Shown: positions 1-22,646, counted from the first letter of the stretch. The stretch is 64,000 bases of DNA from a virus (IMGVR_UViG_3300028591_000119:1-64000), one strand, 5' to 3'. Translations and numbers: made by a program. Notes: generated by a model not told the origin, from the sequence alone.

Positions 1-106
1 CTAGTTATTATAATTACATCTCTTTATATAATAATAATGGAATAACTCCATTTGATATTAATAAGAATGATAAATATATAGATATAAAAAGTAAAGGTAT
101 AACACC
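1..106 (+). repeat. 106-bp exact direct repeat, copy 1 (copy 2 at 13872-13977)
   Basis: Base-by-base identity from CTAGTTATTATAATT to GGTATAACACC; may extend upstream beyond the window. Confidence 0.97.
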
Positions 107-119
107 ATTTGACTTGTAA
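1..119 (+). CDS. 3' end of a gene truncated by the window edge; paralog of the nuclease at 12809-14005 (ends ...SYYNYISLYNNNGITPFDINKNDKYIDIKSKGITPFDL*)
   Basis: Frame 3 is open to TAA at 117-119. Bases 1-106 are identical to 13872-13977. A terminator hairpin follows. Confidence 0.85.
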   Translation, partial: SYYNYISLYNNNGITPFDINKNDKYIDIKSKGITPFDL

Positions 120-130
120 GACCTGTAAAA

Positions 131-162
131 ATTATTCTCTCCCTAAACAGGGAGAGAATAAT
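131..162. terminator. bidirectional intrinsic terminator
   Basis: ATTATTCTCTCCCT-AAAC-AGGGAGAGAATAAT between convergent genes. Confidence 0.85.
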
Positions 163-164
163 AA

Positions 165-1091
165 TCATTTATCTTCTTCATCTAATATTCGTATAAATTT
201 TTTAGTATTTCGTATTCTATATTTAAAATTATTAATAATTACCCTTATACCTTGTTTACTAATACCACCATATTTACGTCCTAAATCCGCATATGTTATA
301 TTTGTAGTAGCATATTCTTCAAATATTTTGTAATCGCGATAAATATTTTTTACATTTTTCCATCGCTTCAACACAGCATTTCGAATATCTTCTATTACAA
401 ATTTAGCATCGATAAGTTTATATATTTCTTCACTATATTTATCAGCTAACGTATCTAATACAGTCATTTTGTTTTCATCATTTATATAATCATCTAGTGA
501 TATAATGTCTATACCTGCTACATAACAAAGAAACGAATTTCTTTTACATCCATAAATATTGTTAAATGACTCATCAGACATATCGAAAATATAATCGATA
601 TCTCGATTCTCAATAGTCAATGATTTCAAAATCGATTTATATTTATTAATCAATGTACTATGCTGTATACCTAGACTATTATACGTGTCCTCAATATATG
701 TGCGTATACGAAATCTATAATCGTTTATCAAATATGTATATATTGAACAGTTATATAGTTTAGCGTCATATTTATCTAAAGCAAACCACATACATTCTAA
801 CGCAAATTGAAGATATTCATTATATTCTACGTTCTTATATAATACTCTATATCTATCCCAATATGAATGTTGAGCAATATAAACAGCATACCAAACCAGA
901 TTATCAAATATTTTTTGTTTATTTGCTTGTATCCGTGATTGATTAGATAATAAACTATCTAATTCATTATTCGTTAATATCGGTTTATATGTGGTACTTT
1001 TTTTATCATATAGATATGACGTGTTTAATATTGTGTCTTTTAGATATCTTACATCAATTTTACTTTCGTATTTTAGATATCTTTCATTCAT
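165..1091 (-). CDS. sigma70-family RNA polymerase sigma factor-like protein
   Basis: Region-2-like EYLQFALECMWFALDKYD...YTY, a region-3-like ISLDDYINDENKMTVLDTLAD, and a C-terminal region-4 HTH TYADLGRKYGGISKQGIRVI. Confidence 0.75.
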   Translation of the reverse strand: MNERYLKYESKIDVRYLKDTILNTSYLYDKKSTTYKPILTNNELDSLLSNQSRIQANKQKIFDNLVWYAVYIAQHSYWDRYRVLYKNVEYNEYLQFALECMWFALDKYDAKLYNCSIYTYLINDYRFRIRTYIEDTYNSLGIQHSTLINKYKSILKSLTIENRDIDYIFDMSDESFNNIYGCKRNSFLCYVAGIDIISLDDYINDENKMTVLDTLADKYSEEIYKLIDAKFVIEDIRNAVLKRWKNVKNIYRDYKIFEEYATTNITYADLGRKYGGISKQGIRVIINNFKYRIRNTKKFIRILDEEDK

Positions 1092-1093
1092 AA

Positions 1094-1816
1094 TTACTTC
1101 TTTCCGATAAGATAGTCAATATATCGATTCAAAACAATCAGCTTGTTTTTATCATCCATTTGGACATATTCTTCAGTCGTACGAGGATCAGTTGCAAACG
1201 CTTTCTTAGCTTCTTCATTGAGGATATATTTCTCTATACATAACTCTCTGAATTTAGGAAGATTTTCAATCCAATTACAGAATGTTCCCCAGTCTTCTTT
1301 AAGTTTATGATGATGTCTTTGTATCCAGATAGTTTTTAGTTGAAGATAATTGGTTGTTACAGTTTCCCATAATTCAAAACCTGCTGGTAAATTTGATCTA
1401 AGTTTAATAAAATTTTCATAACTCTTATCTTCAAGATATTTGTTAAGAAGTTCTCTTATCTGCTTTTTAGATTCTTCTGTAACATATTTGTTATATGGGT
1501 CATGTGAATCATCGTCAAGCATTTTAGATAATGAATGCATTGTGCTTTGACTCATGATGATATCCATAAAATGATATCTTTGGAATTCAGGTGTCCAATA
1601 CTGTGGATATTTAATATCGAATTGTACTACAATACCTTTAAGATATGCATCATGTGATTGATGTTCGTCAAGGTTATTACCTAACATTTTAGCCACTGCT
1701 AATTGTTTTTCAGATACAGGTTTAGTAGTATCAATTTCACCTACGCTGTATGAATTTGAAATTGCATTTATTGCTCTATCTAATCCGAGCATTTCTGTGT
1801 TAGTTATGCAAATCAT
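1094..1816 (-). CDS. ThyX-like (FAD-dependent thymidylate synthase fold) phage protein
   Basis: Motifs H.AYLKGI.VQFDI..P.YW..EFQRYH...SQSTMH, LPAGF and TNYLQLKTIW.QR..HKL.EDW..FC.WI..LP are typical of the divergent phage ThyX-like family. GGAGG RBS. Confidence 0.7.
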   Translation of the reverse strand: MICITNTEMLGLDRAINAISNSYSVGEIDTTKPVSEKQLAVAKMLGNNLDEHQSHDAYLKGIVVQFDIKYPQYWTPEFQRYHFMDIIMSQSTMHSLSKMLDDDSHDPYNKYVTEESKKQIRELLNKYLEDKSYENFIKLRSNLPAGFELWETVTTNYLQLKTIWIQRHHHKLKEDWGTFCNWIENLPKFRELCIEKYILNEEAKKAFATDPRTTEEYVQMDDKNKLIVLNRYIDYLIGKK

Positions 1817-1888
1817 CTTTTTCCTCCATTATATTTGCAAGTTTTACAATATCATTATACATTAAATAAGTTTCTTTTAAAATAAAAA

Positions 1889-1916
1889 GATACACAGGAT
1901 TTCTCCTGTGTATCTA
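1889..1916 (-). terminator. intrinsic terminator
   Basis: AGATACACAGGA-TTTC-TCCTGTGTATCT hairpin followed by a U tract on the minus strand. Confidence 0.8.
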
Positions 1917-1925
1917 TCTTCAATA

Positions 1926-2651
1926 TTAATTAGGTACGGCTACTATTCCATAGAATAATTCAGTGTTATCAGAATCGGCTTTATTTATCGCTTTAAAGAA
2001 CTCGTCTTTAGGATAATATACATCGTTACCATCAATACCTATAGGTTTATAATTTTTAAGTGGATTACCGTAACTATCATCTATTATAATATGTGTAACG
2101 TTTTTAAAATTAGCATTATCTATCAAAAAACTAATATTGTCCCCTGAGAAATAAATATCTTTATCAATATTTTCTAACTCAGCTTTAAAACCTACAATAC
2201 ATATAGCGTGACTAAGACCGGCAAATTTACCACTTGTTACTACGCCTCTTCCACGTTGTATTTCTTCTATGATAGCTAATTTAGACATATTATAATTTAA
2301 TTTAACACATTCGTAACCCACCCATCTATTGAAACAATATACCTCAACTTCCCAAAGTTCTCGAATGTCACCACCTTTCTTTAAGTAATTTCTTACCCAT
2401 AAAGTTTTACAATAATTGTCAACCCATTCTTTAACCTCAGGACTATTGTGCATATACCAATCGAATCCATCTCCAGGTTGTTCAAAACCACCAGTTTTTT
2501 CTTTACTTGTAGGAAGAGTTAGGTTTAAAACTCCTTTAGCTAAATTAATTAAAGAAGTTGGGAAACATGTTATGAATGGATCTCGTTCATTATTAATCTG
2601 TTTGTAATATTTGTCTTTAATAGAGTTATTATGAATGTAAATACTTTTCAT
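1926..2651 (-). CDS. C39-like (papain-fold) cysteine peptidase
   Basis: YYKQ.NN....TCFPTS (Q and catalytic C), SHAICIVG (H) and IIDDSYG (D). Start moved to ATG 2651 because a GAGGAG RBS precedes it and the longer ORF overlaps the upstream gene. Confidence 0.7.
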   Translation of the reverse strand: MKSIYIHNNSIKDKYYKQINNERDPFITCFPTSLINLAKGVLNLTLPTSKEKTGGFEQPGDGFDWYMHNSPEVKEWVDNYCKTLWVRNYLKKGGDIRELWEVEVYCFNRWVGYECVKLNYNMSKLAIIEEIQRGRGVVTSGKFAGLSHAICIVGFKAELENIDKDIYFSGDNISFLIDNANFKNVTHIIIDDSYGNPLKNYKPIGIDGNDVYYPKDEFFKAINKADSDNTELFYGIVAVPN

Positions 2652-2688
2652 ATTACTTTCTCCTCTGATACAATTATCAGTACCAGTA

Positions 2689-5600
2689 CTATTGACCTCT
2701 GTCCTTCTTATAATCTTCAGTAATGTATTTATAATAAGCTTCAGTAATTCCATCATATCGTTTCTTTCCTGTCTTATCAGTAGATACAAATATCTCTTTT
2801 TTATATTTATCAGCCAATTCTTTTTGAGAAGAAATTGCTGTGGCTGTAAGACTCTCTATATCTGTATCATTATGTTGATTAAATAAATCAGATGGTACAA
2901 TATCTTCTTTTCTACCTTTATAAACCGGTGTATTATCTGTATCACTCAAAGGCTGAACTTCGGATCTATCCAATTTTATAGTCCAAGTTTCATCTGAATT
3001 ATCTTTATCAGACCAATATTCATCCATATATTCTTTAGTTAAAAGAATTTCTTCATCATTATTTCTTCTAGTCCAACCTATATAAGATTTATAGTTATTT
3101 TTATTGATTGTTATAGGTTGATATTCGAATATATCTTCTAAACTATCTGGATTTAATAATTTAGGATTATCTCTTCTGAATAAAGTTATATCTATTTTAG
3201 GAGATCGAATATCAGGTAAAGTATATTGTCCTTTACCGTCATAATTGAACAAATATAAAATACTACTAGTATTATCTTTAACTTTCCACACCCAATCACC
3301 ATCAATGGATTCAGGTAATACTGGTATTATTAATCCTGATTCAGATTCCACATATTTTACTTCTCCAGGATTTTTATAAGTATGCATGATTGTGTATTTT
3401 TCTTTCATATTAATCAATGTTTTTCTTATAGTTTCCGGATCATTTATATTTATATCGTCGGATGTATTATTTTCAATATATGGATCGATATTATTATATG
3501 TTGTTCCAATAGAAGAAGTATCAACGTTTTGATCGGTTAAAGATGATACAAATTCATAAGAGAACTGATTATCTTTAATAGATGGGATTCCTTCAGAATC
3601 ATACACTATTTCGAAATCATATATTCGTATTATTCCATGATTGTGGAAGAGAACATATAATGAACCGCTAATAGTGAATGATATACCCATCAATGGGTTA
3701 TTTGTTTCATTAGGCCATATGTCTATATTATCTTTATTAAATATAATAGTTTCGTTTATATATATAGCATTATTTTTTGCTTCAAATAATGATCCTTTAT
3801 ATAAGCATTTCAAGAAAAATACGAGATTTGATAATGTTTCGAATCCGATACCAGCAAAAAATTTAATTTTACTTATATCAGTTAATTCTACAAATATCTT
3901 ATATTCATTAAAATTTCTATCAGTATAATATATTCGTTTAATTGTACCATCGCTATTTTTAGTTAAAACGAAAAATGTATCAATTTCTTGAATATAAGTC
4001 ACACCTAAAGCGATTTGTTTATCTACATCCAAATCTCTTGTTTTAATATTATTACTATATAAACCGAAACCAAATTCATTGATTTTGAGTACACGATTAT
4101 CTCTCAACACAAATGTTGTATAGAAAATTAAATCTAATATGTGTATATCTATTCCTTTAAGAGGAACTAATCCATATAATACATTGTAAGCATCTTTATC
4201 CATCCAATCAGCATACAACGACACGTCATCGGATACTGAAAATCTAGGTAATCTTTTAACAGGTTCATCCGTACAATCTATACTCTTATGATATCCCATA
4301 AATATATAATCTTTTTTACTAGGTTTATCCAATACTACACCGCGATTGAATGACGCTGTTATAGGATAACTTCCGCGATGAATACCTGAAAAAGGTAATT
4401 CCATTTTATCATAATACGATATCTTATAAGTTATTTCCTCAAATACTGGATATAATACCTCGAATTCTTTATTTACGGTTGTTGAAAGAGAAGTTATTAC
4501 GTCACCTATTAAATTAGGATTATTTTTCCATCCAACAAAATTGTATCCTGATTTGCTAGCAGTTAATAATTCTGTTTTAGAATTTTCATAATGTATATCT
4601 GATTCATCTAAATCGTTGAGTTGTATTCCGTTCGTAAAATATGAGATACGATATTCCGAATCTAAAGTTTCTACCATTTCTATAAGATATCTTCTTAAGA
4701 CATCATTAGAGTCGGTTACTTCGATTTCATAAGGTTGATCAGGAGAAAGAACTATAGTGGTATTATTACTATCTAATAATGGAGAATTAGCCCCAGATGA
4801 AACACTCAATTTAATGACATAAGAATCATCATCGGTTCTTTCATTATCTTTGATTGGGAAGAATACTTTATTATTAATATTATCTATTGTTCCAAAAATA
4901 TCGGTTTCAAGAGTAGGATTATCTACTTTACGTAATGTAGCTGATAGGATATAATTTTCTATTTTAGACCATATAGCATATAATGTGATATTCCTATCGA
5001 TAAATCTTTCATCAAAGTTAAACATTTCAGATCCATTTATATTTTCAGACCAACCTATAAATAAATATTGTTTTGTTTCATCCACAGGATCAATAGGTCT
5101 ATATGCTGATGCTGATGTTAATGGTTTGATTTTATCGAATTCTTTAATATTTGAAGAACCGATTTCTTGTAAATCAAACGTTATTTTAAAGAATGTATCG
5201 TGATTGAATTCATTATATAAATTTTTTATTTCATTAATATATGAACTTAAAGAATCTATATAGTATGCTATTTTTTCATCAGGCACATTAGACATGTATG
5301 CGTCGTCTATTAACTTTGATTCACCGTATAAACACTTTAATGCTTGTATAGAATACTTGATTGAATAATTACGTATCAAATATTTTGCTATCAAGTATTT
5401 TTTAATATTGATTTTATCTTCATCAGAGATTTTTTCATATTCTTCAGATTTATCTGTATATAACATAAATAAATTTTTTATATTATATACACCATTATTG
5501 TTAATTCGTTTTAGATCAAATGTTTCTATTAACTTGAATTCAGGTCTTTTTTCAAACAATTTACTACATAAATTCTGTATATCGGCGGCAGATAAATTAG

Positions 5601-7362
5601 TAATATTGATAACTTCAAAATTTGAACTCTTAATATCATTTGTTATAAATACTGAAATAGTATCAGGTATATTATCGAATATGTTATCCAGTTCATCTGA
5701 TATTTCTTCTTGTGTAACGCTAGAGTCAATGTAACTATCTGATTCTGTTGTGATATCGATGTTGGTTTCACCGTTGTTATTACCATTATTATTACTTCCA
5801 CTACCACTATCGTTGTTATCACCGTTATCGTTATTACCATTACCATTATTACTTCCACTACCACTATTGTTATTATTACCGTTATCGTTATTACCACTAC
5901 CATTATTACTATTATTAGAACCGCCATTGCTATTATTTGAAGTTGATTTATCAGGATTCGTTCCTATAAAATCTCCAACTGATGTATCGTTCTTTTTAGC
6001 AAATAACGTGTTATTTACAGAATATATTTCCTCAATAGTGAAGAGTGCACGCAAATCTTGTAACAACGACAACATGTTTGCAATTCCACCGGCAACAATT
6101 CCTTCACCATTACTATCGCCATTAGTATCGAATACATATTTAAAATCGTTATACAATTTACTGTTTTTCAATGAGTTGATCATCTCAGAGTTAGCTTTAC
6201 TCAATATATCAACATTTTTATATTCCAATCGTTTATGTAGTTTCTCGTTCACTAAACGTTTACTTGAAGGTATTTCATCTGAATGTGCCATGTAGATATA
6301 GATTTTCTTAAAATAAGAATTTCGTATATCAATATATTCTTTTATTTTAGTTATATTAGTTGCATCGAAATTTAAACCACACCCAGGATCTTTCCAACTT
6401 TTTTCAAAATTGGTTTTATTTTCTCCATTATCAAATTCTGATAATTCTATTTTAGGAGCGATCACGTCTATATCAGAAGTAGTGATCATATATCTGTTAT
6501 TCATCTCTTCATCATTGTCGCCAAAATATGAAAAATCTTTTAGAATTAAAGGAAATTCGTTTATAAATTCTATAAATCGTTCATCTGTAAAATTATCAAA
6601 ACTATAAACTAGTACATTTTTAAAAATTTCAATAATCCAGTTTTTATAAACGAATGCTATTTCTTCATTATCTGTGGCCGCACCTTGAGATAAATCAGTA
6701 TATTTCTTGTATAATATTTTACAAATATATTTAGGAACTTTATAACAACCTCGTTGAGCAGAATAAATTGCTCGTTTCCACATAGTATTAGTGTAATCGT
6801 ATTGAGTATTGTTGTATTGGTCTAGATATTCTAGATTTTTAGGTAAATCTGATTCCAGACAAACTTTGAGTAATTTATTTTGATAATTTGGATTTGAACC
6901 TGTATATCGTAATGGTTTTACAATACTATTTAAAATTACTTGATCATAAACCGAATCGTCTTTAAGTAATGAAACTACACCTAGAACAGCCGCACCAGTC
7001 AAATCTCCTAATGCACTATCCACCCATGACATTCCAATATTGATAATGTCAGATGCCCAACTATCGAATAGTCCAGATTTTAAACCAAATTTATCAGCTA
7101 AAGCTTTTAATAATTTATTATCTCCTAATCCTAATTTATTTAATAAAGAATCGAGATTAAAACCGTCTAAAGTGTTGTTTATGTAACCTTTAAATGCGTC
7201 TAATCCACCAGTCACATTATTCATAAGACCAGTTAAACTACTTAACGCTCCGGTCAACCATCCTCCTTTACCAGAATCAGATAATAATTTATTAAATAAA
7301 TCTACTGAGGATGTTAAGGATTTTCCTTTGTCTATATAATTATTTAAAACATTAGTAGCCAT
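2689..7362 (-). CDS. large (1557 aa) virion/tail-associated protein with Listeria-Bacteroides (InlB B-type) repeats and an Asn/Gly/Ser-rich linker
   Basis: Repeats YLFIGWSE...NITLYAIW, SKSGYNFVGWK...LYPVF and PSKKDYIFMGY...VSLYADW. Late-type promoter GACATCATAATG and AGGAG RBS upstream. Confidence 0.65.
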   Translation of the reverse strand: MATNVLNNYIDKGKSLTSSVDLFNKLLSDSGKGGWLTGALSSLTGLMNNVTGGLDAFKGYINNTLDGFNLDSLLNKLGLGDNKLLKALADKFGLKSGLFDSWASDIINIGMSWVDSALGDLTGAAVLGVVSLLKDDSVYDQVILNSIVKPLRYTGSNPNYQNKLLKVCLESDLPKNLEYLDQYNNTQYDYTNTMWKRAIYSAQRGCYKVPKYICKILYKKYTDLSQGAATDNEEIAFVYKNWIIEIFKNVLVYSFDNFTDERFIEFINEFPLILKDFSYFGDNDEEMNNRYMITTSDIDVIAPKIELSEFDNGENKTNFEKSWKDPGCGLNFDATNITKIKEYIDIRNSYFKKIYIYMAHSDEIPSSKRLVNEKLHKRLEYKNVDILSKANSEMINSLKNSKLYNDFKYVFDTNGDSNGEGIVAGGIANMLSLLQDLRALFTIEEIYSVNNTLFAKKNDTSVGDFIGTNPDKSTSNNSNGGSNNSNNGSGNNDNGNNNNSGSGSNNGNGNNDNGDNNDSGSGSNNNGNNNGETNIDITTESDSYIDSSVTQEEISDELDNIFDNIPDTISVFITNDIKSSNFEVINITNLSAADIQNLCSKLFEKRPEFKLIETFDLKRINNNGVYNIKNLFMLYTDKSEEYEKISDEDKINIKKYLIAKYLIRNYSIKYSIQALKCLYGESKLIDDAYMSNVPDEKIAYYIDSLSSYINEIKNLYNEFNHDTFFKITFDLQEIGSSNIKEFDKIKPLTSASAYRPIDPVDETKQYLFIGWSENINGSEMFNFDERFIDRNITLYAIWSKIENYILSATLRKVDNPTLETDIFGTIDNINNKVFFPIKDNERTDDDSYVIKLSVSSGANSPLLDSNNTTIVLSPDQPYEIEVTDSNDVLRRYLIEMVETLDSEYRISYFTNGIQLNDLDESDIHYENSKTELLTASKSGYNFVGWKNNPNLIGDVITSLSTTVNKEFEVLYPVFEEITYKISYYDKMELPFSGIHRGSYPITASFNRGVVLDKPSKKDYIFMGYHKSIDCTDEPVKRLPRFSVSDDVSLYADWMDKDAYNVLYGLVPLKGIDIHILDLIFYTTFVLRDNRVLKINEFGFGLYSNNIKTRDLDVDKQIALGVTYIQEIDTFFVLTKNSDGTIKRIYYTDRNFNEYKIFVELTDISKIKFFAGIGFETLSNLVFFLKCLYKGSLFEAKNNAIYINETIIFNKDNIDIWPNETNNPLMGISFTISGSLYVLFHNHGIIRIYDFEIVYDSEGIPSIKDNQFSYEFVSSLTDQNVDTSSIGTTYNNIDPYIENNTSDDININDPETIRKTLINMKEKYTIMHTYKNPGEVKYVESESGLIIPVLPESIDGDWVWKVKDNTSSILYLFNYDGKGQYTLPDIRSPKIDITLFRRDNPKLLNPDSLEDIFEYQPITINKNNYKSYIGWTRRNNDEEILLTKEYMDEYWSDKDNSDETWTIKLDRSEVQPLSDTDNTPVYKGRKEDIVPSDLFNQHNDTDIESLTATAISSQKELADKYKKEIFVSTDKTGKKRYDGITEAYYKYITEDYKKDRGQ
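5770..5940 (-). repeat. low-complexity imperfect tandem repeat encoding an N/G/S/D linker
   Basis: Repeated CCATTATTACTTCCACTACCACTAT and ACCGTTATCGTTATTACC units on the + strand. Confidence 0.85.
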
Positions 7363-7449: not shown

Positions 7450-7459
7450 CAAATAATTT

Positions 7460-8140
7460 CTACATTTTAAGAATATCTTTCCAAAGTCTATTGTCTTTAT
7501 CTGCTGGATTTAATCCGAAATATTTAACAATTTCTTCAAGAGCTTTAGTTGCTTCTTCAGTAGTTATAGTTAATAAATTATTGTCTTTAAGAACATATTC
7601 TATTTCGAAATAATACAAATCATTTACATTATCAAAATCAACCACAATTTCACCGAATGCAGGTTTGAATGTCAAACAACGTTTAATCTTATTGAAATAT
7701 CTGTATCCTAAAGCATCGAAACATTTAGATACTACGTCACATTGTTCTTTAGAAATTTTCTCTTCAAATTCAGAATTACTTTCGCCCTTTTCAGTAACTT
7801 TACGGTGTTTATATGTGATGTAGATATCGTTTTCTGATTCGGGATCTTCCCACTTTTCAATTTCACCAGCATCAAACATTTTGTGTGTAGGATAAAAGAA
7901 CCAATTCTTAACATCACATTCTTTATCTGGACTAAAATATTCAATCATTTTATCAGATACAACGTTAGTTGATCTTATTCGGATGATTTCGTGGTTTTTA
8001 GCATTTGAATCATCAATAGAATTCCAATAACGATCTGTTTTAATTTTTAAAACATAAGAATATTCTTGAAATATCTTATCGATGACTTCTTCAGCTTTTT
8101 CCTTGCTCATAGGAATTTTGAATTCAATTTCTTTACTCAT
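7460..8140 (-). CDS. CYTH (triphosphate tunnel / class IV adenylate cyclase-like) domain protein
   Basis: N-terminal EIEFK (ExExK), D.YW, IRIR, ITYK, NSEFE, KIKR, VDFD.V and YFEIE motifs. Start at ATG 8140 with an AAGGAG RBS. Confidence 0.8.
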   Translation of the reverse strand: MSKEIEFKIPMSKEKAEEVIDKIFQEYSYVLKIKTDRYWNSIDDSNAKNHEIIRIRSTNVVSDKMIEYFSPDKECDVKNWFFYPTHKMFDAGEIEKWEDPESENDIYITYKHRKVTEKGESNSEFEEKISKEQCDVVSKCFDALGYRYFNKIKRCLTFKPAFGEIVVDFDNVNDLYYFEIEYVLKDNNLLTITTEEATKALEEIVKYFGLNPADKDNRLWKDILKM

Positions 8141-8172
8141 GTATTTTCTCCTTTTAGATGGATCGGTCACTG

Positions 8173-12808: not shown

Positions 12809-14005
12809 ATGAAAATGATATCGACTATTAAAGAATTGAAAAATATAAAATCTCGTGAAAGTTTTTCTTATATTTGTCGTAAATGTGGAAAAATCACAGT
12901 CGTAAAAACGTCTTATAAACCATGTATGTTAAAAAGATATTCGACTTTTGAATGTCCGTCATGTTATAAGTATCGTGAAAGATATATAGAAAATAATATA
13001 CCGCTTATCGATGCAAATAGTATTTCTAAGATTGATAAATTGAAACAAAATACGCCTTTCAAAATCAAATGCTCATCTTGTGGAAGAATATATACTATAC
13101 ATTCGTTTAGACATTATAGAATACCAGAATATAAACGTTTATTGTGTCGTAAATGTTCATGCAAAATAGTAGCAAATAAAGAATCGACTATAACTAATAG
13201 ATTTAAAACTAATCTTAAAAGATACGGTGTAAAATCCGTGAGTCAAGCACCAAAAATTAAAGATAAAATCAAATCTGTTAAATTAAAAAGATACGGTGAT
13301 CCATATTATACTAATAGGAAAAAAGCTTTTGAAACATTAAATACAAAATACGGTATAAATAATCCTAATAAAGTTGATCCATTTAAATCAGTTATGTCTA
13401 GACTTGATAAATATGGGTCGGTTGTCCCGAATTATAAATATAATTATTATGGTATATATTTTGATTCTTCATGGGAATTAGCAGTTTGGATATATTATAT
13501 AGATAATAATATTCCTATTATTAGAAATTCATGTACTTTTAATTATACTGATATGTATAATAGAATTCATTATTATCAACCTGATTTCATTATTAATAGT
13601 AATTATGTAGAAGTGAAAGGTCCTCAATTCTGGAATAATGGTAATATGATATATCCATATAATAAAAAGAAAGTTAATGGTGGTGTATGGATACCATTAA
13701 CTAAAGAAGAAAAAGAATTCATGGATGATCTTTATGAAAGAAAACACCAATGCGGTTTATCTAATAATGTATTATTCTTAACTAATAAAGATATATTACC
13801 TTATTTAGAATATTGTAATAATAAATATCCTAATTGGAATATATTATTTAGAAAAGATAATATATTTAATCCTAGTTATTATAATTACATCTCTTTATAT
13901 AATAATAATGGAATAACTCCATTTGATATTAATAAGAATGATAAATATATAGATATAAAAAGTAAAGGTATAACACCTTATGATATTAAACAATATAATG
14001 ATTGA
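12809..14005 (+). CDS. free-standing PD-(D/E)XK endonuclease with Zn ribbons, (K/R)YG repeats and C-terminal tandem GITPFD tail
   Basis: Four CxxC pairs, KRYG repeats, FDSSWE, YQPDF...VEVKG; ends GITPFDINKNDKYIDIKSKGITPYDI. Confidence 0.8.
   Translation: MKMISTIKELKNIKSRESFSYICRKCGKITVVKTSYKPCMLKRYSTFECPSCYKYRERYIENNIPLIDANSISKIDKLKQNTPFKIKCSSCGRIYTIHSFRHYRIPEYKRLLCRKCSCKIVANKESTITNRFKTNLKRYGVKSVSQAPKIKDKIKSVKLKRYGDPYYTNRKKAFETLNTKYGINNPNKVDPFKSVMSRLDKYGSVVPNYKYNYYGIYFDSSWELAVWIYYIDNNIPIIRNSCTFNYTDMYNRIHYYQPDFIINSNYVEVKGPQFWNNGNMIYPYNKKKVNGGVWIPLTKEEKEFMDDLYERKHQCGLSNNVLFLTNKDILPYLEYCNNKYPNWNILFRKDNIFNPSYYNYISLYNNNGITPFDINKNDKYIDIKSKGITPYDIKQYND
13872..13977 (+). repeat. 106-bp exact direct repeat, copy 2
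   Basis: Identical to 1-106; 13931-13984 also matches the reverse complement of 21150-21203 at 51/54. Confidence 0.97.
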
Positions 14006-14018
14006 TAATGGAGGCAAT

Positions 14019-14597
14019 ATGAAATTATATTTTAAACAAAAATCATTATTTGCGTGGATAGTGTATAATATTTTACGTTTTATACCTATTATATTATTTT
14101 CTTGGATATTTTATATAGTTTACTATTTTAAATATCTTAAAAAGAAAGAAAACGGAGAATATTCTGTTTTATTAAATCGGTGGCTTGAAGCGTGCAAAGA
14201 TGAAAACTCTTTAGTAAAATATTTTAGTGATCAATATAATTATAAATATGATTTAGTTGGTGGATTTATGGATCACGATTCTGGACTACATGAATGGTTA
14301 ATAGGAAATGGTGATTGTGATGATATGGCATTATACTCTAAAAAGGCATTGAAAAAATTAGGTTATGAATCCTATAGAATAGGTATCATGTGGTTTCCTA
14401 AACATAAATTACCAATATTACATTTTGATTGTTTAACTGTTGAACGAGACGATAACGGAAACGTAATTAAAGCCAGACTATTTAATTATGGAAACGAAAT
14501 ATCTTCTACTTCAATAGAAGAAACATTATACACTCTTACAGGTAGATATACAAATGATAGAAATACTAAAACTAAAGTTTGTGTATGTTTACACTAA
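14019..14597 (+). CDS. membrane-anchored transglutaminase-like cysteine protease
   Basis: N-terminal TM segment, GDCDDMA catalytic motif and a downstream H. GGAGG RBS before ATG 14019. Confidence 0.65.
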   Translation: MKLYFKQKSLFAWIVYNILRFIPIILFSWIFYIVYYFKYLKKKENGEYSVLLNRWLEACKDENSLVKYFSDQYNYKYDLVGGFMDHDSGLHEWLIGNGDCDDMALYSKKALKKLGYESYRIGIMWFPKHKLPILHFDCLTVERDDNGNVIKARLFNYGNEISSTSIEETLYTLTGRYTNDRNTKTKVCVCLH

Positions 14598-15328: not shown

Positions 15329-15329
15329 A

Positions 15330-15632: not shown

Positions 15633-15688
15633 ATTTTATCTCCTTATATGTATTCTATGACTAAAATATATAAATAAACCTATATTTT

Positions 15689-15700
15689 GACATAATTATG
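15689..15700 (+). promoter_or_regulatory. late-type promoter motif GACATAATTATG
   Basis: Matches RACAT-N5-TG upstream of a structural gene. Confidence 0.6.
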
Positions 15701-15734
15701 AATTTGAATTTTAACTATAAATAAGAGGTTAAGT

Positions 15735-17222
15735 ATGGCATATTTTAAGAGCGGAAATACGAGTGTAACGCCATCTAACAATAATACAACTATACGACAT
15801 GGAGATGGGGCAGCACTAATTAAACCGCATGAAGTCGAACAACGTATAGGTAACGCCGTAATACAAGATAAATTAGATGTAAAAAATACACCGTTAAGCA
15901 GATTAACTTCTATAACTACATCGGTTATCTATTATGCACACGACACTTCAGATAGAAATGATTATATTACTAATACGGGAAATATCAGTTCTGTATCTGT
16001 AAATAAAGAAGCTTTAAATAAAATCAAAGATTTTGTTATTATTTGTCAAGATGCGCTCAATGTTTCACTTGAAAAGAATGAAAATAAAAATTCTTTAATG
16101 GGTGAAGCAAGTGCTAAAATTTTACCTAAAACTATAAAGCCACTTATAAATGATCATTTCGTAATGCAAACTCTTGATAAGAGAAATCTTTATCGAGTAA
16201 CAGATGTTAATAAAACATCTATAGAAAACGATAGTGCATATGAAATAACTTATCAATTAGTAGAAGAAAACGCTAGTCACAATACTACACTTTTAAGTGA
16301 ACTTGAAAAGAATGTAGTGGCTACATTCCGATTCGTTTATTCTCACGTTGGTACAGAATTTAGAACACTTTTCAGAGAAGATGAATATAGTGCACTCGCT
16401 ACATTGGAACAAATGTATGGAGATATAGCTAGCGCATATGTTGAAAATTTTTACAATAAAGATAAAAATACATTTATTTTACCATACGATTGTACAACTA
16501 TTAAAGATGAATACGGTTCATCTTTAGCAGAATCTCGACTGATGGAAAAAAGATATTATTCGGTTAATCTTGAAAATGAAGAAATGGAACCGCCTAGATT
16601 GAATAATTCTGACGTATGGTACGGTTCATTAATGTACGATAGAATGCTTATCGAATTTATCACAAGAACATCGTTGTTCACTAATGTAGATAGGCATACT
16701 TACTATATCAGTAAATTACAAGAAGATTTAGAAAGATGGTATAGTAAAACTATATTCTATGCATTGGAACACCAATCTGTAGGTAAATTGACTTTTAAAT
16801 ACCATTTACCTTCTCCTATAACTAGAATAACTGTAGCCTCAACTATGAATTTGTATGGTTTAGTTAGTTTGGAACCTTTACCTGGATACGTAGATGGTTG
16901 TCTTTCCTTATATCCTAAATGTCTCATTAAATATCTTTATTGGGAAGGATGTAAAGATAGAAGTATCAAAGACGTTACATTGAATACATATTCTTCTATA
17001 GTAGATTTCATATGTGAAATTATAGGTTTATATGTAAATAAAAGAGAAGATGCTTTATTGAGTAGATTACTTTTACTTAATGAGCATTTCAGTGAATTCT
17101 CGGAAATAGGTATAAGAGATCAGAATGAATTCTATCTATTCCCATTACTAGCATTTGTTATAAGAAAAATGATGGATCGTTTAAGCGATGCTAATTTCGG
17201 TTTATCAATGAATGCTGTTTAA
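15735..17222 (+). CDS. jumbo-phage virion structural protein (probable neck/head-completion type)
   Basis: The GEASAKILPKTIKPLINDHF...LYRVTDV pattern is recalled from conserved phiKZ/AR9-like structural proteins; late-type promoter. Confidence 0.5.
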   Translation: MAYFKSGNTSVTPSNNNTTIRHGDGAALIKPHEVEQRIGNAVIQDKLDVKNTPLSRLTSITTSVIYYAHDTSDRNDYITNTGNISSVSVNKEALNKIKDFVIICQDALNVSLEKNENKNSLMGEASAKILPKTIKPLINDHFVMQTLDKRNLYRVTDVNKTSIENDSAYEITYQLVEENASHNTTLLSELEKNVVATFRFVYSHVGTEFRTLFREDEYSALATLEQMYGDIASAYVENFYNKDKNTFILPYDCTTIKDEYGSSLAESRLMEKRYYSVNLENEEMEPPRLNNSDVWYGSLMYDRMLIEFITRTSLFTNVDRHTYYISKLQEDLERWYSKTIFYALEHQSVGKLTFKYHLPSPITRITVASTMNLYGLVSLEPLPGYVDGCLSLYPKCLIKYLYWEGCKDRSIKDVTLNTYSSIVDFICEIIGLYVNKREDALLSRLLLLNEHFSEFSEIGIRDQNEFYLFPLLAFVIRKMMDRLSDANFGLSMNAV

Positions 17223-17236
17223 CGAAATTTATAAAA

Positions 17237-17268
17237 AATAAAACAGACACGAAAGTGTCTGTTTTATT
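17237..17268. terminator. bidirectional intrinsic terminator
   Basis: AATAAAACAGACAC-GAAA-GTGTCTGTTTTATT with a GNRA loop. Confidence 0.88.
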
Positions 17269-17287
17269 TATTTGTCAGAAGCTGAAA

Positions 17288-17998: not shown

Positions 17999-18192
17999 AA
18001 TTTTATCTCCTTTGTAGAACTTTTATTTTTTTATCTTTATTCTACATAAATAAAATATATAAAGAAAAACGCATTTGATAAAAAATAACCCTTACTCACA
18101 CTTTTGTGTTTTCAGGAATTATTTCTACAATTTAGTGATTGTATTGAATCCTATCATTTGACCATATATAAATAGTATTAAAAATAAAATAA

Positions 18193-18216
18193 AAAAGAGA
18201 CCCGAAGGTCTCTTTT
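18193..18216 (-). terminator. intrinsic terminator
   Basis: AAAAGAGACC-CGAA-GGTCTCTTTT; the loop reads TTCG on the minus strand. Confidence 0.85.
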
Positions 18217-18226
18217 CATACTCTAC

Positions 18227-18385
18227 CTACGCTGTTCTTTTCATCTGTTTAAGAACTGCTTCAAATTGTCTCTTGAGACGTTCTTCTTCAGATATTGAGA
18301 TGGCATCTTTTTTAACCATCTCCTGACAACGTTTGATCTTAACAGCTTCACTGAGCTGTTTATTATAAGTATTATACATATTCAT
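18227..18385 (-). CDS. 52-aa small protein missing from the ORF track (MNMYNTYNKQLSEAVKIKRCQEMVKKDAISISEEERLKRQFEAVLKQMKRTA)
   Basis: GAGGAG RBS, its own ACGTTTATATTAT motif, a 5' hairpin and a terminator. Confidence 0.8.
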   Translation of the reverse strand: MNMYNTYNKQLSEAVKIKRCQEMVKKDAISISEEERLKRQFEAVLKQMKRTA

Positions 18386-18424
18386 ATTCAATCTCCTCGT
18401 ATACACATTTTAGTATATACTTTA

Positions 18425-18451
18425 TTTTATTCACTAATATAATATAAACGT
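18425..18451 (-). promoter_or_regulatory. early-type promoter cassette (inverted repeat of 19223-19249)
   Basis: ACGTTTATATTATATTAGTGAATAAAA, 26/27 identical to 19223-19249. Confidence 0.7.
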
Positions 18452-18491
18452 GAGATGACATAATAAATGAAATTATATAGGAGGTTTTAAA

Positions 18492-19160
18492 ATGATATCT
18501 GAAATAGAAATTAAATCTATGTTATCTCAACGTAGAATATTGGGTATTCTATGTATTTTATTGGCACCTTGTTCATTATTATTTGGTTTAATCGGAGCAA
18601 AATATAATGAACCGTACTGGTACACTTCTATATCAAGTACATATTATGCAAATTCTAAAATTATAATGATCGGTTTATTGTTTGCTACGTCCGTTTTCTT
18701 TTTCTCATATAAAGGATATGATATAAAAGACAGAATATGTTCTTTAATTGAAGCTATCAGTGCTATGGGAATTATAATTTTTCCAAATGGAGATACTCGA
18801 ATGAAAGAAGTTACAGGTTTATTCTGTTTACCTCTACATATCAGTGCAATAATTCATAATACATGTGCCGCTATATTATTCATAACATTTGGTATTAATA
18901 TCTTATGTTTATTTACTATAGGCGATAAAACTAATCCTAAAAAACGCCAACGTAATATGGTTTATTATATTTGCGGTATATTGATTTTTTTAGGAATTTT
19001 ATCTCAATTTTTTTATATCGTATTTTTATTTAAATATAACAACCATAGTGTTATAACTATGATTAATGAATTCGTAATGTTAGTAGCGTTCGGATTTGCT
19101 TATTTAGTTAAATCCGAGTCTATATTTTCATTAAATGATATTTCCTCTAAGGTTTCATAG
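18492..19160 (+). CDS. polytopic membrane protein, DUF998-like
   Basis: About 6 TM helices; RR.LG.L, SIS..YY, YKGYD..D and H...A.LFF motifs. Confidence 0.6.
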   Translation: MISEIEIKSMLSQRRILGILCILLAPCSLLFGLIGAKYNEPYWYTSISSTYYANSKIIMIGLLFATSVFFFSYKGYDIKDRICSLIEAISAMGIIIFPNGDTRMKEVTGLFCLPLHISAIIHNTCAAILFITFGINILCLFTIGDKTNPKKRQRNMVYYICGILIFLGILSQFFYIVFLFKYNNHSVITMINEFVMLVAFGFAYLVKSESIFSLNDISSKVS

Positions 19161-19173
19161 TCATTTTAATAAT

Positions 19174-19205
19174 AAATCCTGCCTAAAAAGGCAGGATTTT
19201 TTTTT
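19174..19205 (+). terminator. intrinsic terminator
   Basis: AAATCCTGCCT-AAAA-AGGCAGGATTT plus a long T tract. Confidence 0.88.
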
Positions 19206-19221
19206 ATTTTATATGGGTTTC

Positions 19222-19249
19222 GACGTTCATATTATATTAGTGAATAAAA
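19222..19249 (+). promoter_or_regulatory. early-type promoter cassette GACGTTCATATTAT
   Basis: 14-mer identical to 31385-31398; inverted copy at 18425-18451. Confidence 0.7.
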
Positions 19250-19292
19250 GTATATACTATAATACTATAAAGTGTATATACAAGGAGAAACT

Positions 19293-19523
19293 ATGATTAT
19301 TACTATATTTACTACAGATGCTATCTCTGATGCATCTTCTAAAAAATTACAATCGATGTTAAACGGTACAGGTTTAGTGTACTGTGACATTAGCGCACAC
19401 ATGTGTGCATTACGTTCAGAATACGTAATGGATCCTTCAAAAGCAAAATATGCTTCTGAAAGCGTAAAGTCATTAGATGACTATATTGCAATGTTGGAGG
19501 AATTCAATGCTGTTGCTGCATAA
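19293..19523 (+). CDS. 76-aa hypothetical early-type protein
   Basis: AAGGAG RBS before ATG 19293, with its own promoter motif and terminator. Confidence 0.8.
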   Translation: MIITIFTTDAISDASSKKLQSMLNGTGLVYCDISAHMCALRSEYVMDPSKAKYASESVKSLDDYIAMLEEFNAVAA

Positions 19524-19529
19524 AAGAGA

Positions 19530-19567
19530 AAAAAATAAACTCGGGACAAACCCGAGTTTATTTTTTA
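19530..19567 (+). terminator. intrinsic terminator
   Basis: AAAAATAAACTCGGG-ACAAA-CCCGAGTTTATTTTT. Confidence 0.88.
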
Positions 19568-19632
19568 TTTTTCTTTTAAAATGTATATTAATAAATTATG
19601 AAAAACTTTAAAAATGAAAAAGGAAATATAGA

Positions 19633-21114
19633 ATGAAAATAGATATAGATTTTGAAGACGATTATTCTTATTTAGAAGATACTATATATTTTGAATCTGT
19701 TTTAGGATTAAAAAACCGACCTAAGAAACCCGATGTGTTCAACAGCATCTCTATAAATACACCATATTATTTTGATTTAAAAGCTAAAAAAGAATATTTT
19801 ATCGAATATGAAAATAAACATAAAAATCTACTTAAATCGTTCGATGATAAAGATTTACTAGAAAATTTTAATTTTATGAAATTTGGTTATGATAAACCGT
19901 TTTTGTATTTTTATGATAATAGAGAATTTAACAATGCTCTCGAATTAGAATTATATATTTATGCAGTTGATAAGAATCTCGATATAGAAAGATGTCCTGG
20001 TTTCTATGATGATAAAAACTACAGTATGATTTATCCTGATTTTAAATTAGGGGATAGATTAATATATATTGTATACCCATTTGAAGACATAAATCATAGA
20101 AATAAAGTAAAAGATAAATATCCTAATTGTGAATTTTGGACTGAGAAAGATTTTGAGGAAATAAGTCAGCATATATATGATAATTACAGTGACGATTATT
20201 TACCGTTGTTTTATAAAGATGTTCCATTTCCCTGGCCAAACGCTGATCTTAAAGACACTAGTCCTATGGGATTGGTAAGACATTTTCATAAATCTATAAT
20301 GGAAGGTCGTCATAAAGACGAACCAAATATTCTCGAATTATGGAACAATAAAGAAATATTTAAACAGCTCGCTTTAAATCGCCTATTTTATGTTGGTGAA
20401 TGCAATGTTGATAGAATGCGTCAAGGTTATAATATCACTAAGATAGCTACAAAGATTTCTGTTTTTAAAAATACTACGGCAATCGAATTAATCAAAACTT
20501 ACCTGTATGATGCTAAAGAAATTTTTGACCTATTTTCAGGATTCTCAGGCCGTATGCTTGGCGCGATTCAATGTGGAAAACCATACATAGGTAGAGACAT
20601 AAATGCTAAACATATTGAAGAATCAAAACAAATACTTTCTTGGTGGAAAGCAAACCGAGATCCAAACGTGCAAGTGGATCTAAAAGTCGCTGATGCAACT
20701 AAAGAATTTGGTGTTTATGATTGTCTTCTGACTTGTTCACCATATGCAACAATAGATCGTAGAGGTAATAGAAAAAATATAGAAGATTGGAATAATAAAG
20801 ATCAACTTGCCCTTACTTGCGATGAATGGATAGATATTTGTTTGTTACGATATAAATGTCGAAAGTATGTGTTTGTTGTAGATGATACTGTTGTGAAATA
20901 TCGTCCGTATGTAGTAAGTTCTATAGGTAATCATGGTCATATGGGTAGGAACACAGAATATGTAGTTTATTTGAATTTTACTAATTATTCTCTTCCTATG
21001 TATAACCAAAATAAAGGTAAAGGTCTTACTCCATTTGACATCGATAAAACCAAACAATATCAAGATATTGGTAAAGGCGTAACTCCATTTGATATTCCTC
21101 AATTAATTAAATAA
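19633..21114 (+). CDS. amino (N4-C/N6-A) DNA methyltransferase fused to an N-terminal degenerate PD-(D/E)XK nuclease domain; C-terminal tandem GxTPFD tail
   Basis: Motif I IFDLFSGFSGRMLGA...YIGRDIN and motif IV-like LTCSPY. The N-terminal F...LELELYIYA.D....YPDF..G..IYIV lacks the ExK. Ends KGLTPFDIDKTKQYQDIGKGVTPFDI. Confidence 0.75.
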   Translation: MKIDIDFEDDYSYLEDTIYFESVLGLKNRPKKPDVFNSISINTPYYFDLKAKKEYFIEYENKHKNLLKSFDDKDLLENFNFMKFGYDKPFLYFYDNREFNNALELELYIYAVDKNLDIERCPGFYDDKNYSMIYPDFKLGDRLIYIVYPFEDINHRNKVKDKYPNCEFWTEKDFEEISQHIYDNYSDDYLPLFYKDVPFPWPNADLKDTSPMGLVRHFHKSIMEGRHKDEPNILELWNNKEIFKQLALNRLFYVGECNVDRMRQGYNITKIATKISVFKNTTAIELIKTYLYDAKEIFDLFSGFSGRMLGAIQCGKPYIGRDINAKHIEESKQILSWWKANRDPNVQVDLKVADATKEFGVYDCLLTCSPYATIDRRGNRKNIEDWNNKDQLALTCDEWIDICLLRYKCRKYVFVVDDTVVKYRPYVVSSIGNHGHMGRNTEYVVYLNFTNYSLPMYNQNKGKGLTPFDIDKTKQYQDIGKGVTPFDIPQLIK

Positions 21115-21115
21115 T

Positions 21116-21143
21116 AAGAACTCTCCATTTGGAGAGTTCTTTT
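21116..21143. terminator. bidirectional terminator shared by the convergent methyltransferase and nuclease genes
   Basis: AAGAACTCTCC-ATTT-GGAGAGTTCTT. Confidence 0.88.
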
Positions 21144-22646
21144 TTACAAATCATAAGGTGTTATTCCTTTACTTTTTATATCTACATATTTATCATTTTT
21201 ATTATCGTATGGCATTATACCGTGTCTTGAGAACACTGGCATTGTATAATAAGGATACATGTTAGTATATGGTCTAATAATAGGAATAAATCCATTAGGA
21301 TATAAGTATGTGGGATTCATTGGATTATCAACATAAAACAAATTCATGTATTCTTTTCCATAAATATACTCGACATATTTAACGTATGGTAAACATTTCT
21401 CAGAAAACCAAAATTCCACACCGTTTTCTTTTTCAATACGATGCTTAATTTTATCTTTTAAAATATTCCTACTATTAAATTTTGACGACTTGTCATATAA
21501 ATGATCACCTTTTATCTCTATTATTTTACCATTGTAATAAAAATCTGGATAAACCGCATGTATTTTGTCATTATACATATATTCATATTTTACAGGCTCT
21601 CGTAAAATATATTCATTATGATCTTTAGCATATATCCATATTGCTAATTCCCATTTAGAATCAAAACGTATACCATAATAATTTATCTTAGATACTATAG
21701 GATGATCACACCCAGTATTCTTATACATGGTTTCTTTAGCTTTATTTCGCACGTCATTATTACTGAGAGGAGTTTTGAACCCGTATTTGACTAAATTAGT
21801 ATTCTCTACGCGCTCTCTTAATATAGGCGATTCCATGGTCGTCTTCGCTCCATATCTATTTTTCATAACAGTTTGCATTTGTTGTAATATACGTGCATCT
21901 TGTATAGGTCGTTTTACACCTAATTTAGCCATAGTCGATTCATTTATTTTATACACTACCTCAGGAGATTCACACGCGTTATCTTTACCATACCGTTGTT
22001 GACATGTAACGTGGCGTTTTTCTAAATTATTAAAATGAGCGTCACCATAACGTTCTAATTTGGTGTTTTCTGCCTTACTCAAATTATTATATTTTTTATC
22101 ACCATAACGTTCTAATTTAGTTTGTTTATTTTTAGACACGTTGTTATAATTCTCATTACCGTAACGTTTTAATTTAGTTTGTTTAGATTTAAGGTTGATT
22201 ATCTGTTTTTCTTCATCAGTTTTTTTATGTCGTTTAGTATAATATATGTCTCTCAATTCATCCTCGGTTTTATTTTTCCAAGTTAACATCGTTTTGTTTT
22301 TTATTTCGACATTTTTCATAGGATTATCTGTTCCATATCTTTCAATAAATATTGCTTTCTTTAGACATGGTACACATAAAAACTTAGAAAGATTATTTAT
22401 TTTACTTGTACGAAATGAATTTAAACTGAAATAGATGTTTCCGCATTGTTTACATCTAAAATATACACATGCGTTTCCTTTTAAAGACCTGAGATCTTCA
22501 ATATTTTCAACTGCATTTATTTTAATAGTTTTAAGTTTTTCAATTATTTGTTCTTTGGATAAATGCCACGCGTCGCCGTATGCGCTTTTATTAGCTAATA
22601 TATGGTTTGCGATAGCATTATAAATATCGTCGGTTATTTCTTTCAT
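21144..22646 (-). CDS. free-standing PD-(D/E)XK endonuclease with Zn ribbon, many (E/K)RYG repeats and C-terminal GITPYD tail
   Basis: CKQC/CVPC, tandem 19-aa K.TKLERYG...NN repeats, FDSKWE and VYPDF...IEIKG; ends GIMPYDNKNDKYVDIKSKGITPYDL. Confidence 0.82.
   Translation of the reverse strand: MKEITDDIYNAIANHILANKSAYGDAWHLSKEQIIEKLKTIKINAVENIEDLRSLKGNACVYFRCKQCGNIYFSLNSFRTSKINNLSKFLCVPCLKKAIFIERYGTDNPMKNVEIKNKTMLTWKNKTEDELRDIYYTKRHKKTDEEKQIINLKSKQTKLKRYGNENYNNVSKNKQTKLERYGDKKYNNLSKAENTKLERYGDAHFNNLEKRHVTCQQRYGKDNACESPEVVYKINESTMAKLGVKRPIQDARILQQMQTVMKNRYGAKTTMESPILRERVENTNLVKYGFKTPLSNNDVRNKAKETMYKNTGCDHPIVSKINYYGIRFDSKWELAIWIYAKDHNEYILREPVKYEYMYNDKIHAVYPDFYYNGKIIEIKGDHLYDKSSKFNSRNILKDKIKHRIEKENGVEFWFSEKCLPYVKYVEYIYGKEYMNLFYVDNPMNPTYLYPNGFIPIIRPYTNMYPYYTMPVFSRHGIMPYDNKNDKYVDIKSKGITPYDL

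Follow-up and report, generated by a model that had tools for sequence, protein, structure and literature searches.

A tandem C-terminal peptide shared by homing endonucleases, a probable methyltransferase fusion and the replicative helicase of a giant gut phage

Four genes end in the same tandem peptide

The window analysed here is the 64,000-nucleotide stretch IMGVR_UViG_3300028591_000119:1-64000, the first 64 kb of a 122,278-bp contig (G000, 30% G+C) of a giant gut phage, and our subject is a short peptide tag that stands in tandem at the C-terminus of four of its open reading frames (ORFs). In all four, the tag consists of two copies of G[ILVM][TM]P[FY]D with a period of 18-19 residues, and the second copy lies 1-6 residues from the stop codon. 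The outermost carrier is a homing-endonuclease paralogue of which the contig start leaves only the 3' end (1-119, plus strand; copies at 39-56 and 96-113, stop codon at 117-119). A second is P0001, a 398-aa free-standing homing-endonuclease-like protein (12809-14005, plus strand; copies at 13910-13927 and 13967-13984). The remaining two genes are convergent: P0002 (493 aa; 19633-21114, plus strand; copies at 21022-21039 and 21076-21093) combines a degenerate nuclease and a probable DNA methyltransferase with the tag, and P0003 (500 aa; 21144-22646, minus strand; copies at 21204-21221 and 21150-21167) is again homing-endonuclease-like. All these positions and peptides agree with the first-pass annotation from which this analysis started.

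A six-frame search of the 122-kb genome yielded ten matches to G[ILVM][TM]P[FY]D, compared with none in each of 30 mononucleotide shuffles, and all ten make up five C-terminal tandem pairs, again with a period of 18-19 residues. Four of these pairs belong to the ORFs above. As such, the statement that no other ORF carries the motif holds within the window but fails for the genome, where a helicase gene at 104313-106217 on the minus strand is tagged as well. The tail consensus is G[ILVM][TS]P[FY][DN], in full a tandem G-h-T-P-[FY]-D ... Y ... G-h-T-P-[FY]-D, in which the spacer between the motifs carries an invariant Tyr; the tail is non-acidic.

At the DNA level the carriers are not equally distant from each other. 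Positions 1-106 are identical to 13872-13977, and the spacer and second copy of the P0003 gene are near-identical to both, with 51 of 54 nucleotides in common. The tails of the methyltransferase and helicase genes, in contrast, have diverged and encode the same residues with other codons. The near-identity of the three nuclease tails means that they are recent copies of one another, which suggests that the endonuclease paralogues were recently duplicated or underwent gene conversion. There are therefore four carriers in the window, as had been claimed, but not four independent events, since only the methyltransferase tail differs in its DNA. The synonymous variation described earlier was confirmed over 12 tails from three contigs, in which the invariant residues use three codons each (Gly GGA/GGT/GGC, Thr ACT/ACA/ACG, Pro CCA/CCG/CCT). 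Together with the recoded methyltransferase and helicase tails, this argues for selection on the peptide.

The replicative helicase carries the tag throughout its clade

The fifth carrier, which lies outside the window, is a 634-aa DnaB-like replicative helicase (L001:4313-6217 on the minus strand, corresponding to the genome position given above). It matches the Pfam family divDNAB (PF20307) with an E-value of 1e-32 (113.8 bits, cut-off 26) and phrog_3213 with an E-value of 3e-30, its C-terminus reads ...GMTPFDYDKRERYAPVSEVGITPFDLAM, and its gene adjoins a primase gene. The helicase is an independent carrier of the tag. Among the 53 homologues found, which are 41-97% identical to the query, 50 are full length. 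A terminal motif, counted as [TSN]P[FY][DN] or LPF, is present within the last 14 residues of 46 of these 50, down to 41% identity, and 33 have at least two xP[FY] elements in their last 60 residues. A few of them terminate exactly in ...LPF, and Phe is rarely the last residue. Besides TPFD there is a clade with TPFN (P0031, P0042 and P0043, for example), whose contigs are not part of IMG/VR. In the helicase alignment (A2), every sequence has P629 and more than 90% have F630, whereas the linker of about 90 residues ahead of the tail is unconserved, residues ~527-600 having no consensus.

More distant divDNAB helicases (at most 30% identity, IMG/VR loci L022-L064) end in other short tails, such as ...LFDFSS/ST..., ...IFEFAC..., ...LEFSALF, ...LNSMF and ...VDEAF, several of which are acidic with an aromatic residue at or near the end. 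It looks as if a lineage-specific C-terminal docking tail is a general trait of divDNAB helicases, with TPFD as the version of this clade; as a general feature of the family, such a tail may so far be undescribed. G004, a complete phage of 250 kb, has a helicase that terminates in ...DLFDFSS..., and a search of its other ORFs found none that shared this tail beyond chance. In G007, a phage with a tail-less homologue of the nuclease, there was no match to the tail profile described below. From these two negative results, the sharing of a tail between proteins looks specific to the TPFD lineage.

Judged from these alignments, no other carrier owns the tail as deeply or as constantly as the replicative helicase. 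Furthermore, because the tail is kept throughout the helicase clade and nuclease homologues outside that clade are without it, the helicase appears to have had the tail first.

The tagged nucleases and the methyltransferase fusion

P0001 is composed of Zn-ribbons, RYG repeats (DUF7487) and a PD-(D/E)XK nuclease, with an NPSY segment ahead of the tandem tag. It matches Pfam DUF7487 (PF24308) with 34.5 bits (cut-off 27) and phrog_3339, annotated as 'homing endonuclease', with an E-value of 1.8e-4. The corresponding values for P0003 are 83.6 bits and 4e-10, and P0003 additionally matches phrog_12131, likewise a 'homing endonuclease'; P0002 has no DUF7487 match. An alignment of 22 nuclease sequences (A3) shows a common architecture of one or more Zn-ribbons, a varying number of RYG repeats, the PD-(D/E)XK nuclease, helices ending in NPxNPSY, a variable linker and the tail, with the catalytic residues D259, E268 and K270 invariant across all 22. 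When the AlphaFold2 model of the nuclease domain was compared with known structures using Foldseek, the top rows were PD-(D/E)XK enzymes (TnsA, Bax1, AbaSI, I-Ssp6803I and RecU), although these were weak matches, all with E-values above 0.08. P0001 and P0003 are free-standing PD-(D/E)XK homing endonucleases of the DUF7487/phrog_3339 type with the invariant D...E.K. They differ from DUF7487 homologues in other phages, which stop after the nuclease-associated helices and have neither the NPSY segment nor the tail. Tail-less homologues are found among the nucleases (P0096, P0097 and the nuclease of L101) as well as among the nuclease-methyltransferase fusions (P0093 and P0094).

Downstream of P0001 lies a 205-aa ORF (13980-14597, plus strand) that begins 26 nt upstream of the P0001 stop codon. 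Since it starts before that stop, the residues of P0001 past the second copy (KQYND) fall within the overlap, and this may explain why the P0001 tail is longer than its twin at 1-119.

P0002 requires separate consideration, as it was the carrier that had suggested an unrelated enzyme ahead of the tag. Its family shows methyltransferase motifs, with an invariant motif I (FSGFSGR) and a motif IV of CSPY or CPPY, and searches of P0002 against Pfam, NCBIfam and PDB sequences gave no match. The homologue P0076, a tagged DUF7487 protein, matches N6_N4_Mtase (PF01555) at an E-value of 5e-4 and 20.4 bits, which is below the cut-off of 26.7, and the P0002 family profile reaches M.MboIIA at an E-value of 0.12. 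By these motifs and sub-threshold matches, P0002 is no more than a probable DNA methyltransferase, which tempers the earlier reading. Nor is it an unrelated carrier: its N-terminus holds a nuclease domain of the same kind, degenerate and with the ExK replaced, so that P0002 derives from the same endonuclease scaffold and does not count as an independent owner of the tail. A homologue of P0002 in G002 (71% identical) is also tagged, whereas the fusions P0093 and P0094 end without the tag. The convergent arrangement, in which a gene for a dead nuclease with a methyltransferase faces one for an active nuclease and both carry the tag, recurs in a second phage fragment, G002 (L003:1342-3024 on the plus and L003:3648-4865 on the minus strand), and such a conserved pair fits a mobile, restriction-modification-like cassette.

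The tail is portable and predicted to be disordered

A profile of the tail only (40 positions) was searched against 1.84 billion representative proteins at an E-value of at most 1e-3. It matched 36 protein clusters, 29 of which end within 10 residues of the C-terminus; four of the 36 (P0067, P0084, P0085 and P0087) were set aside as repeat proteins with no relation to the others. The majority of the matches are DUF7487/PD-(D/E)XK homing endonucleases. Besides P0076 with its sub-threshold methyltransferase match, they include P0078, a tagged DUF7487 protein without a nuclease match in its Pfam scan, and P0075, a tagged 675-aa protein with multiple helix-turn-helix (HTH) domains and no DUF7487.

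A further tagged family consists of acidic proteins of about 160 residues, with members on contig G001, discussed below (120223-120699, L075:223-699 on the minus strand; isoelectric point 4.05), in P0077, at L104:3369-3863 on the plus strand and at L118. Over the last ~50 residues these proteins look like the helicase tail, down to the hydrophobic helix that precedes it. In two phages the gene for the small acidic protein lies beside that of a 367-369-aa Mre11/SbcD-like metallophosphoesterase (a function taken from an Atlas lead only), and in G001 it is two genes away from an exonuclease-bearing DNA polymerase subunit; Atlas returned nothing for the 158-aa acidic protein itself. Finally, within the proteomes of G000 and G001 a single internal copy (ENKGITPFDVKKGDKY) occurs in a 781-aa RNA polymerase beta-like subunit with Rpb2 domain 6 (L077:12305-14650 on the plus strand, G001 172305-174650). 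A 71%-identical homologue retains NKGVTPFDVAKKEKY while the flanks vary, and the common form, NKG[IV]TPFDV.K..KY at residues ~563-581, which is seen at this locus and at L103:301-2625 on the plus strand, is situated in a locally variable stretch.

AlphaFold2 models built with family alignments gave the helicase core (~20-525) a predicted local distance difference test (pLDDT) score of mostly 75-94 per ten-residue block, and residues 526-634 a score below 50. For P0001, residues ~210-355 scored above 90 and the tail (360-398) below 50. Neither the helicase nor the nuclease tail was docked on its own core. Taken with the nuclease homologues that lack it, these models make the tag a portable linear motif, predicted to be disordered and lying outside any fold. 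The idea that the tail forms an integral part of the nuclease fold was rejected, both on the existence of tail-less nuclease homologues and on the pLDDT below 50 beside confidently predicted cores.

Two contigs that are probably of one phage type

IMG/VR contig G001 (IMGVR_UViG_3300028591_000086, Ga0247611_10000064; 195,466 bp, 29% G+C) has almost no proteins in common with G000, yet the two look like neighbours that meet in repeats. Their right ends (119775-122278 of G000 and 194500-195466 of G001) overlap in inverted orientation inside a repetitive Cys-ladder gene. The left end of G001 (1-367) is the 5' portion of the endonuclease gene whose final 119 bases begin the window; here a frame that stays open for at least 449 aa stops about 20 codons before window base 1. 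The assembly breaks of both contigs thus fall in repeats, namely the endonuclease paralogue and the Cys-ladder gene. P0095 is 100% identical to a G001 nuclease, and the longest recorded contig for both P0095 and the window protein P0003 is one of 258,455 bp. Most likely, G000 and G001 are complementary fragments of one phage type of about 317 kb.

Taken together, the two contigs encode nine full carriers. Six of these are nucleases, of which one is split over the contig ends, and the other three are the methyltransferase fusion, the helicase and the small acidic protein. A tenth, partial carrier is the RNA polymerase beta-like subunit with its internal copy. Among the untagged proteins of G001 are the two halves of a split B-family polymerase of phiKZ type, an NAD ligase and the Mre11/SbcD-like protein. 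Judged by its divDNAB, its divDNApol, the split B-family polymerase and the pieces of a multisubunit RNA polymerase, the phage is a member of the phiKZ/AR9-type jumbo supergroup. Among cultured phages, AR9 and PBS1 are the nearest helicase relatives.

Discussion

Several known systems use short terminal peptides to bring enzymes together on DNA, and the tail described here resembles each of them in part. The C-terminal tail of the T7 gp4 helicase-primase contacts T7 DNA polymerase (PMC8472574), and so does that of the T7 single-stranded DNA-binding protein gp2.5; both tails are acidic. Like the tails of T7 gp4 and gp2.5, the present one is disordered, stands at the C-terminus of a hexameric DnaB/RecA-type helicase, has a key aromatic residue, and is found in kind on a second, small acidic protein; several tails of the distant divDNAB helicases are T7-like too, being acidic with an aromatic residue at or near the end. 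Unlike the T7 tails, however, this one is non-acidic and built of a tandem G-h-T-P-F-D with an invariant Tyr in between, its carriers include homing endonucleases and methyltransferase fusions for which T7 has no counterpart, and polymerase binding could be proposed here only by analogy. A comparison with clamp-binding motifs, such as those of the T4 gp45 clients gp43, gp33 and gp55, QL[SD]LF, or the PCNA-interacting peptide (PIP) box Qxx[ILM]xx[FY][FY], leads to a similar outcome. These too are short terminal peptides of hydrophobic and aromatic character, and clamp clients (polymerases, nucleases, methyltransferases, helicases and RNA polymerase factors) are likewise unrelated enzymes that converge on one hub; moreover, the I-x-x-F spacing in ITPF resembles the PIP core. 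The tag nevertheless has no Gln and no paired aromatics, and does not conform to the consensus of the clamp motifs, (S/T)LDFL[FY] included. Nor is there a recognisable clamp gene by the Pfam models used, and the polymerase subunits of this phage are untagged.

The tip of the single-stranded DNA-binding protein (SSB; ...DDDIPF) shares with our tail an [IL]-P-F near the C-terminus that follows a disordered linker. In the SSB system, though, it is the hub that carries the tip and the clients that carry the pockets, whereas here the clients carry the motif; in addition, the present tail is non-acidic, usually has D/N and 0-6 further residues after the aromatic, and sits on proteins that are not SSBs, so that it does not qualify as an SSB tip. 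A precedent in principle comes from insertion sequence (IS) transposases, which carry beta-sliding-clamp binding motifs (PMC4549789) and are thus enzymes of selfish elements with a replisome docking peptide. There the host clamp is the hub, while here phage homing endonucleases are involved and the template is apparently the tail of a phage helicase. Among known kinds, the tail would belong with the terminal docking tails of replisome proteins, and it is the client list that is unusual: our literature search found no report of homing endonucleases that share a tail with a replicative helicase.

On balance, we consider the tail to be probably a partner-docking short linear motif of helicase type that mobile endonucleases have co-opted. 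The helicase tail would be an old and constant feature of this jumbo-phage lineage, hung on a linker of about 90 residues, and free-standing PD-(D/E)XK homing endonucleases and their methyltransferase-fused derivatives would have acquired a tail of the same type. The tail would then tether these endonucleases to the hub of the helicase on the DNA-handling machinery of the phage, be it the replisome or the recombination-repair apparatus, so that cutting, and methylation where present, would occur where phage DNA is copied and repaired. A tethered cognate methyltransferase might put protection, alongside cutting, at the replicating DNA. As every chain has two copies of the motif and the helicase hexamer brings six such chains together, such binding could gain from avidity. 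For homing, an endonuclease relies on recombinational repair of the break that it introduces, and this repair is coupled to replication. That the tail binds a partner, and that all carriers share this partner, is what we infer from the distribution of the peptide, a common docking partner being the most economical reading of one tail on several folds.

These results change the picture drawn by the first-pass annotation in several respects. That the tag can move between proteins and that selection acts on it as a peptide is borne out by its presence on a helicase, on the acidic family of about 160 residues and on a multi-HTH protein, and by the synonymous codons at its invariant residues. Two outcomes had been named beforehand as fatal to the idea, namely that the motif is integral to the nuclease fold or is scattered at random positions; instead, it was found to be disordered, portable and C-terminal. 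The proposal of a docking peptide with one common partner is supported in its general form, that of a portable docking tag, but a partner was not found. A coordinated phage-encoded system of nucleases and modification enzymes, on the other hand, is not supported, since the nucleases are dispersed homing-endonuclease paralogues and the deepest owner of the tail is, on the alignments, the replicative helicase. The carriers are selfish paralogues and core DNA enzymes with the tail as their sole unifier, and the better picture is that of selfish endonucleases borrowing the tail of a core phage DNA enzyme. Loading into the virion, which had been among the suggested destinations, is unlikely for a helicase.

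A number of observations weigh against co-option of a helicase docking tail. The tail departs from every published clamp-binding, PIP, SSB-tip and acidic-tail consensus, no binding partner was identified, and the literature search returned no paper with the peptide in a relevant context, nor anything on DUF7487. In the combined proteome of G000 and G001, both polymerase subunits, the ligase, the topoisomerase and the primase carry no tag. Part of the conservation of the nuclease tails is recent copying, three of the four tails in the window being near-identical in DNA. In the acidic-protein family, 14-17 residues follow the second copy, which indicates that a free C-terminus is not essential. 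Pfam models found no beta clamp (DNA_pol3_beta_2) and no SSB in G000, and no match to RNase H, T4 gp45 (DNA_PPF) or PCNA (PCNA_N) in G000 and G001 together, although divergent clamps, such as the Rhc clamp domain of phiKZ (PMC13648687), would escape these models. A co-fold of the tail alignment with the 609-aa exonuclease-bearing polymerase subunit (A4) and its 302-aa neighbour gave no answer (score 0.00) and counts neither way. It should be noted that phiKZ-like phages use highly diverged replisome accessory proteins (PMC13648687), and a hub that is invisible to sequence searches is therefore plausible.

More tentatively, and in our view possible but doubtful, the tail could define an entire hub network, in which one unrecognised protein of phage or host reads the tandem TPFD and gathers all carriers at replicating phage DNA: the helicase, the RNA polymerase subunit, the acidic adaptor encoded beside Mre11-like and polymerase genes, and every homing endonuclease and methyltransferase. 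If true, phages would have their own counterpart of the PCNA/PIP-box tool belt, or else a linear entry signal to a replication compartment, with selfish endonucleases copying the peptide to gain admission.

The second of these options can also be framed without a replisome hub, with the tag as an address to the phage replication compartment, whether a nucleus-like shell or a condensate, and as an entry ticket for the endonucleases. The assignment of the phage to the phiKZ/AR9-type supergroup would suit this, as would the fact that all carriers, with the RNA polymerase subunit among them, act on DNA, and a disordered, terminal tag is what sorting signals often look like. We nonetheless regard it as unlikely, since the same address would be required of the polymerase subunits, ligase, topoisomerase and primase, none of which has the tag, and a phmmer search with phiKZ proteins, admittedly a weak test, returned no credible homologue of chimallin or PicA. 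Moreover, the nearest cultured relatives of the helicase come from AR9 and PBS1, neither of which, to our knowledge, forms a nucleus, and we know of no linear import signal in chimalliviruses. Could the tail of about 30 residues instead work by itself, binding DNA or mediating oligomerisation with no separate hub? Its carriers all bind DNA and are mostly oligomers (the helicase is hexameric, and PD-(D/E)XK nucleases are usually dimers or tetramers), and the invariant Tyr in the spacer hints at a defined small structure. AlphaFold2, however, gives the tail no confident structure and no docking on either core, the motifs themselves are without conserved basic residues, and homologous nucleases of the same fold work without the tail, all of which makes a self-contained module rather improbable.

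Being exposed, disordered and C-terminal, with an invariant T-P and Asp, and present on nucleases able to damage the phage's own DNA, the tag might also be regulatory, as a degron or as a site of post-translational modification (the Thr of TP, for instance) by which the action of potentially harmful DNA enzymes is timed. We give this little credence, as Met, Ser or Asn replaces the Thr in otherwise intact tails and the most conserved positions are the aromatic and the Pro, as in binding motifs. An essential helicase would furthermore be an odd client for a degron, and no adjacent conserved kinase or protease was seen. Least of all do we favour the possibility that the 3' ends are alike merely as DNA, as substrates of recombination or homing, with the peptide as a by-product. 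It would account for the identity of 1-106 with 13872-13977, for the 51 of 54 nucleotides shared with the 500-aa gene, and for contigs that break inside such repeats. Yet the helicase and methyltransferase tails retain the peptide with different codons, the terminal motif persists in 46 of 50 helicase homologues down to 41% identity, and a protein-level profile recovers highly diverged tails, so that the synonymous-codon spectrum largely refutes this explanation.

Hubs that are read by short terminal peptides, such as clamps, the SSB tip and the T7 tails, organise DNA metabolism, and we know of none in the replisome of phiKZ/AR9-type jumbo phages, a replisome that is only now being worked out (PMC13648687). 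If the tail is indeed a docking motif taken over from the helicase, it offers a bait of about 30 residues with which to fish the missing hub from a lineage that is uncultured. A possible way for free-standing homing endonucleases to couple to replication and repair, the step that homing needs, is suggested by it as well, and as a portable peptide it is a candidate recruitment handle.

Gene neighbourhood and a second shared peptide

The endonuclease genes of the window are dispersed between structural genes, which is how free-standing homing endonucleases usually sit. Their neighbours include a 1,557-aa protein with Listeria-Bacteroides repeats, likely a fibre or adhesin (2689-7362, minus strand), as well as a CYTH-domain protein (7460-8170, minus strand) and a head-tail joining protein (15735-17222, plus strand). 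For most genes around the helicase and around the gene of the small acidic protein, neither Pfam nor PHROG gave a family match.

A second portable peptide was observed at the other end of proteins: MK[IL]TISQEG[TSI]SPI[ST]I[ST]VPDN starts four otherwise unrelated proteins, two of them in G000 (L020:12157-12750 and L021:4695-5165, both on the minus strand, genome 96157-96750 and 116695-117165) and two in G001 (126279-127049 on the minus and 111234-112046 on the plus strand). They show 75% identity across 24-40 residues, after which the similarity ends, and this N-terminal peptide may be a targeting or processing leader.

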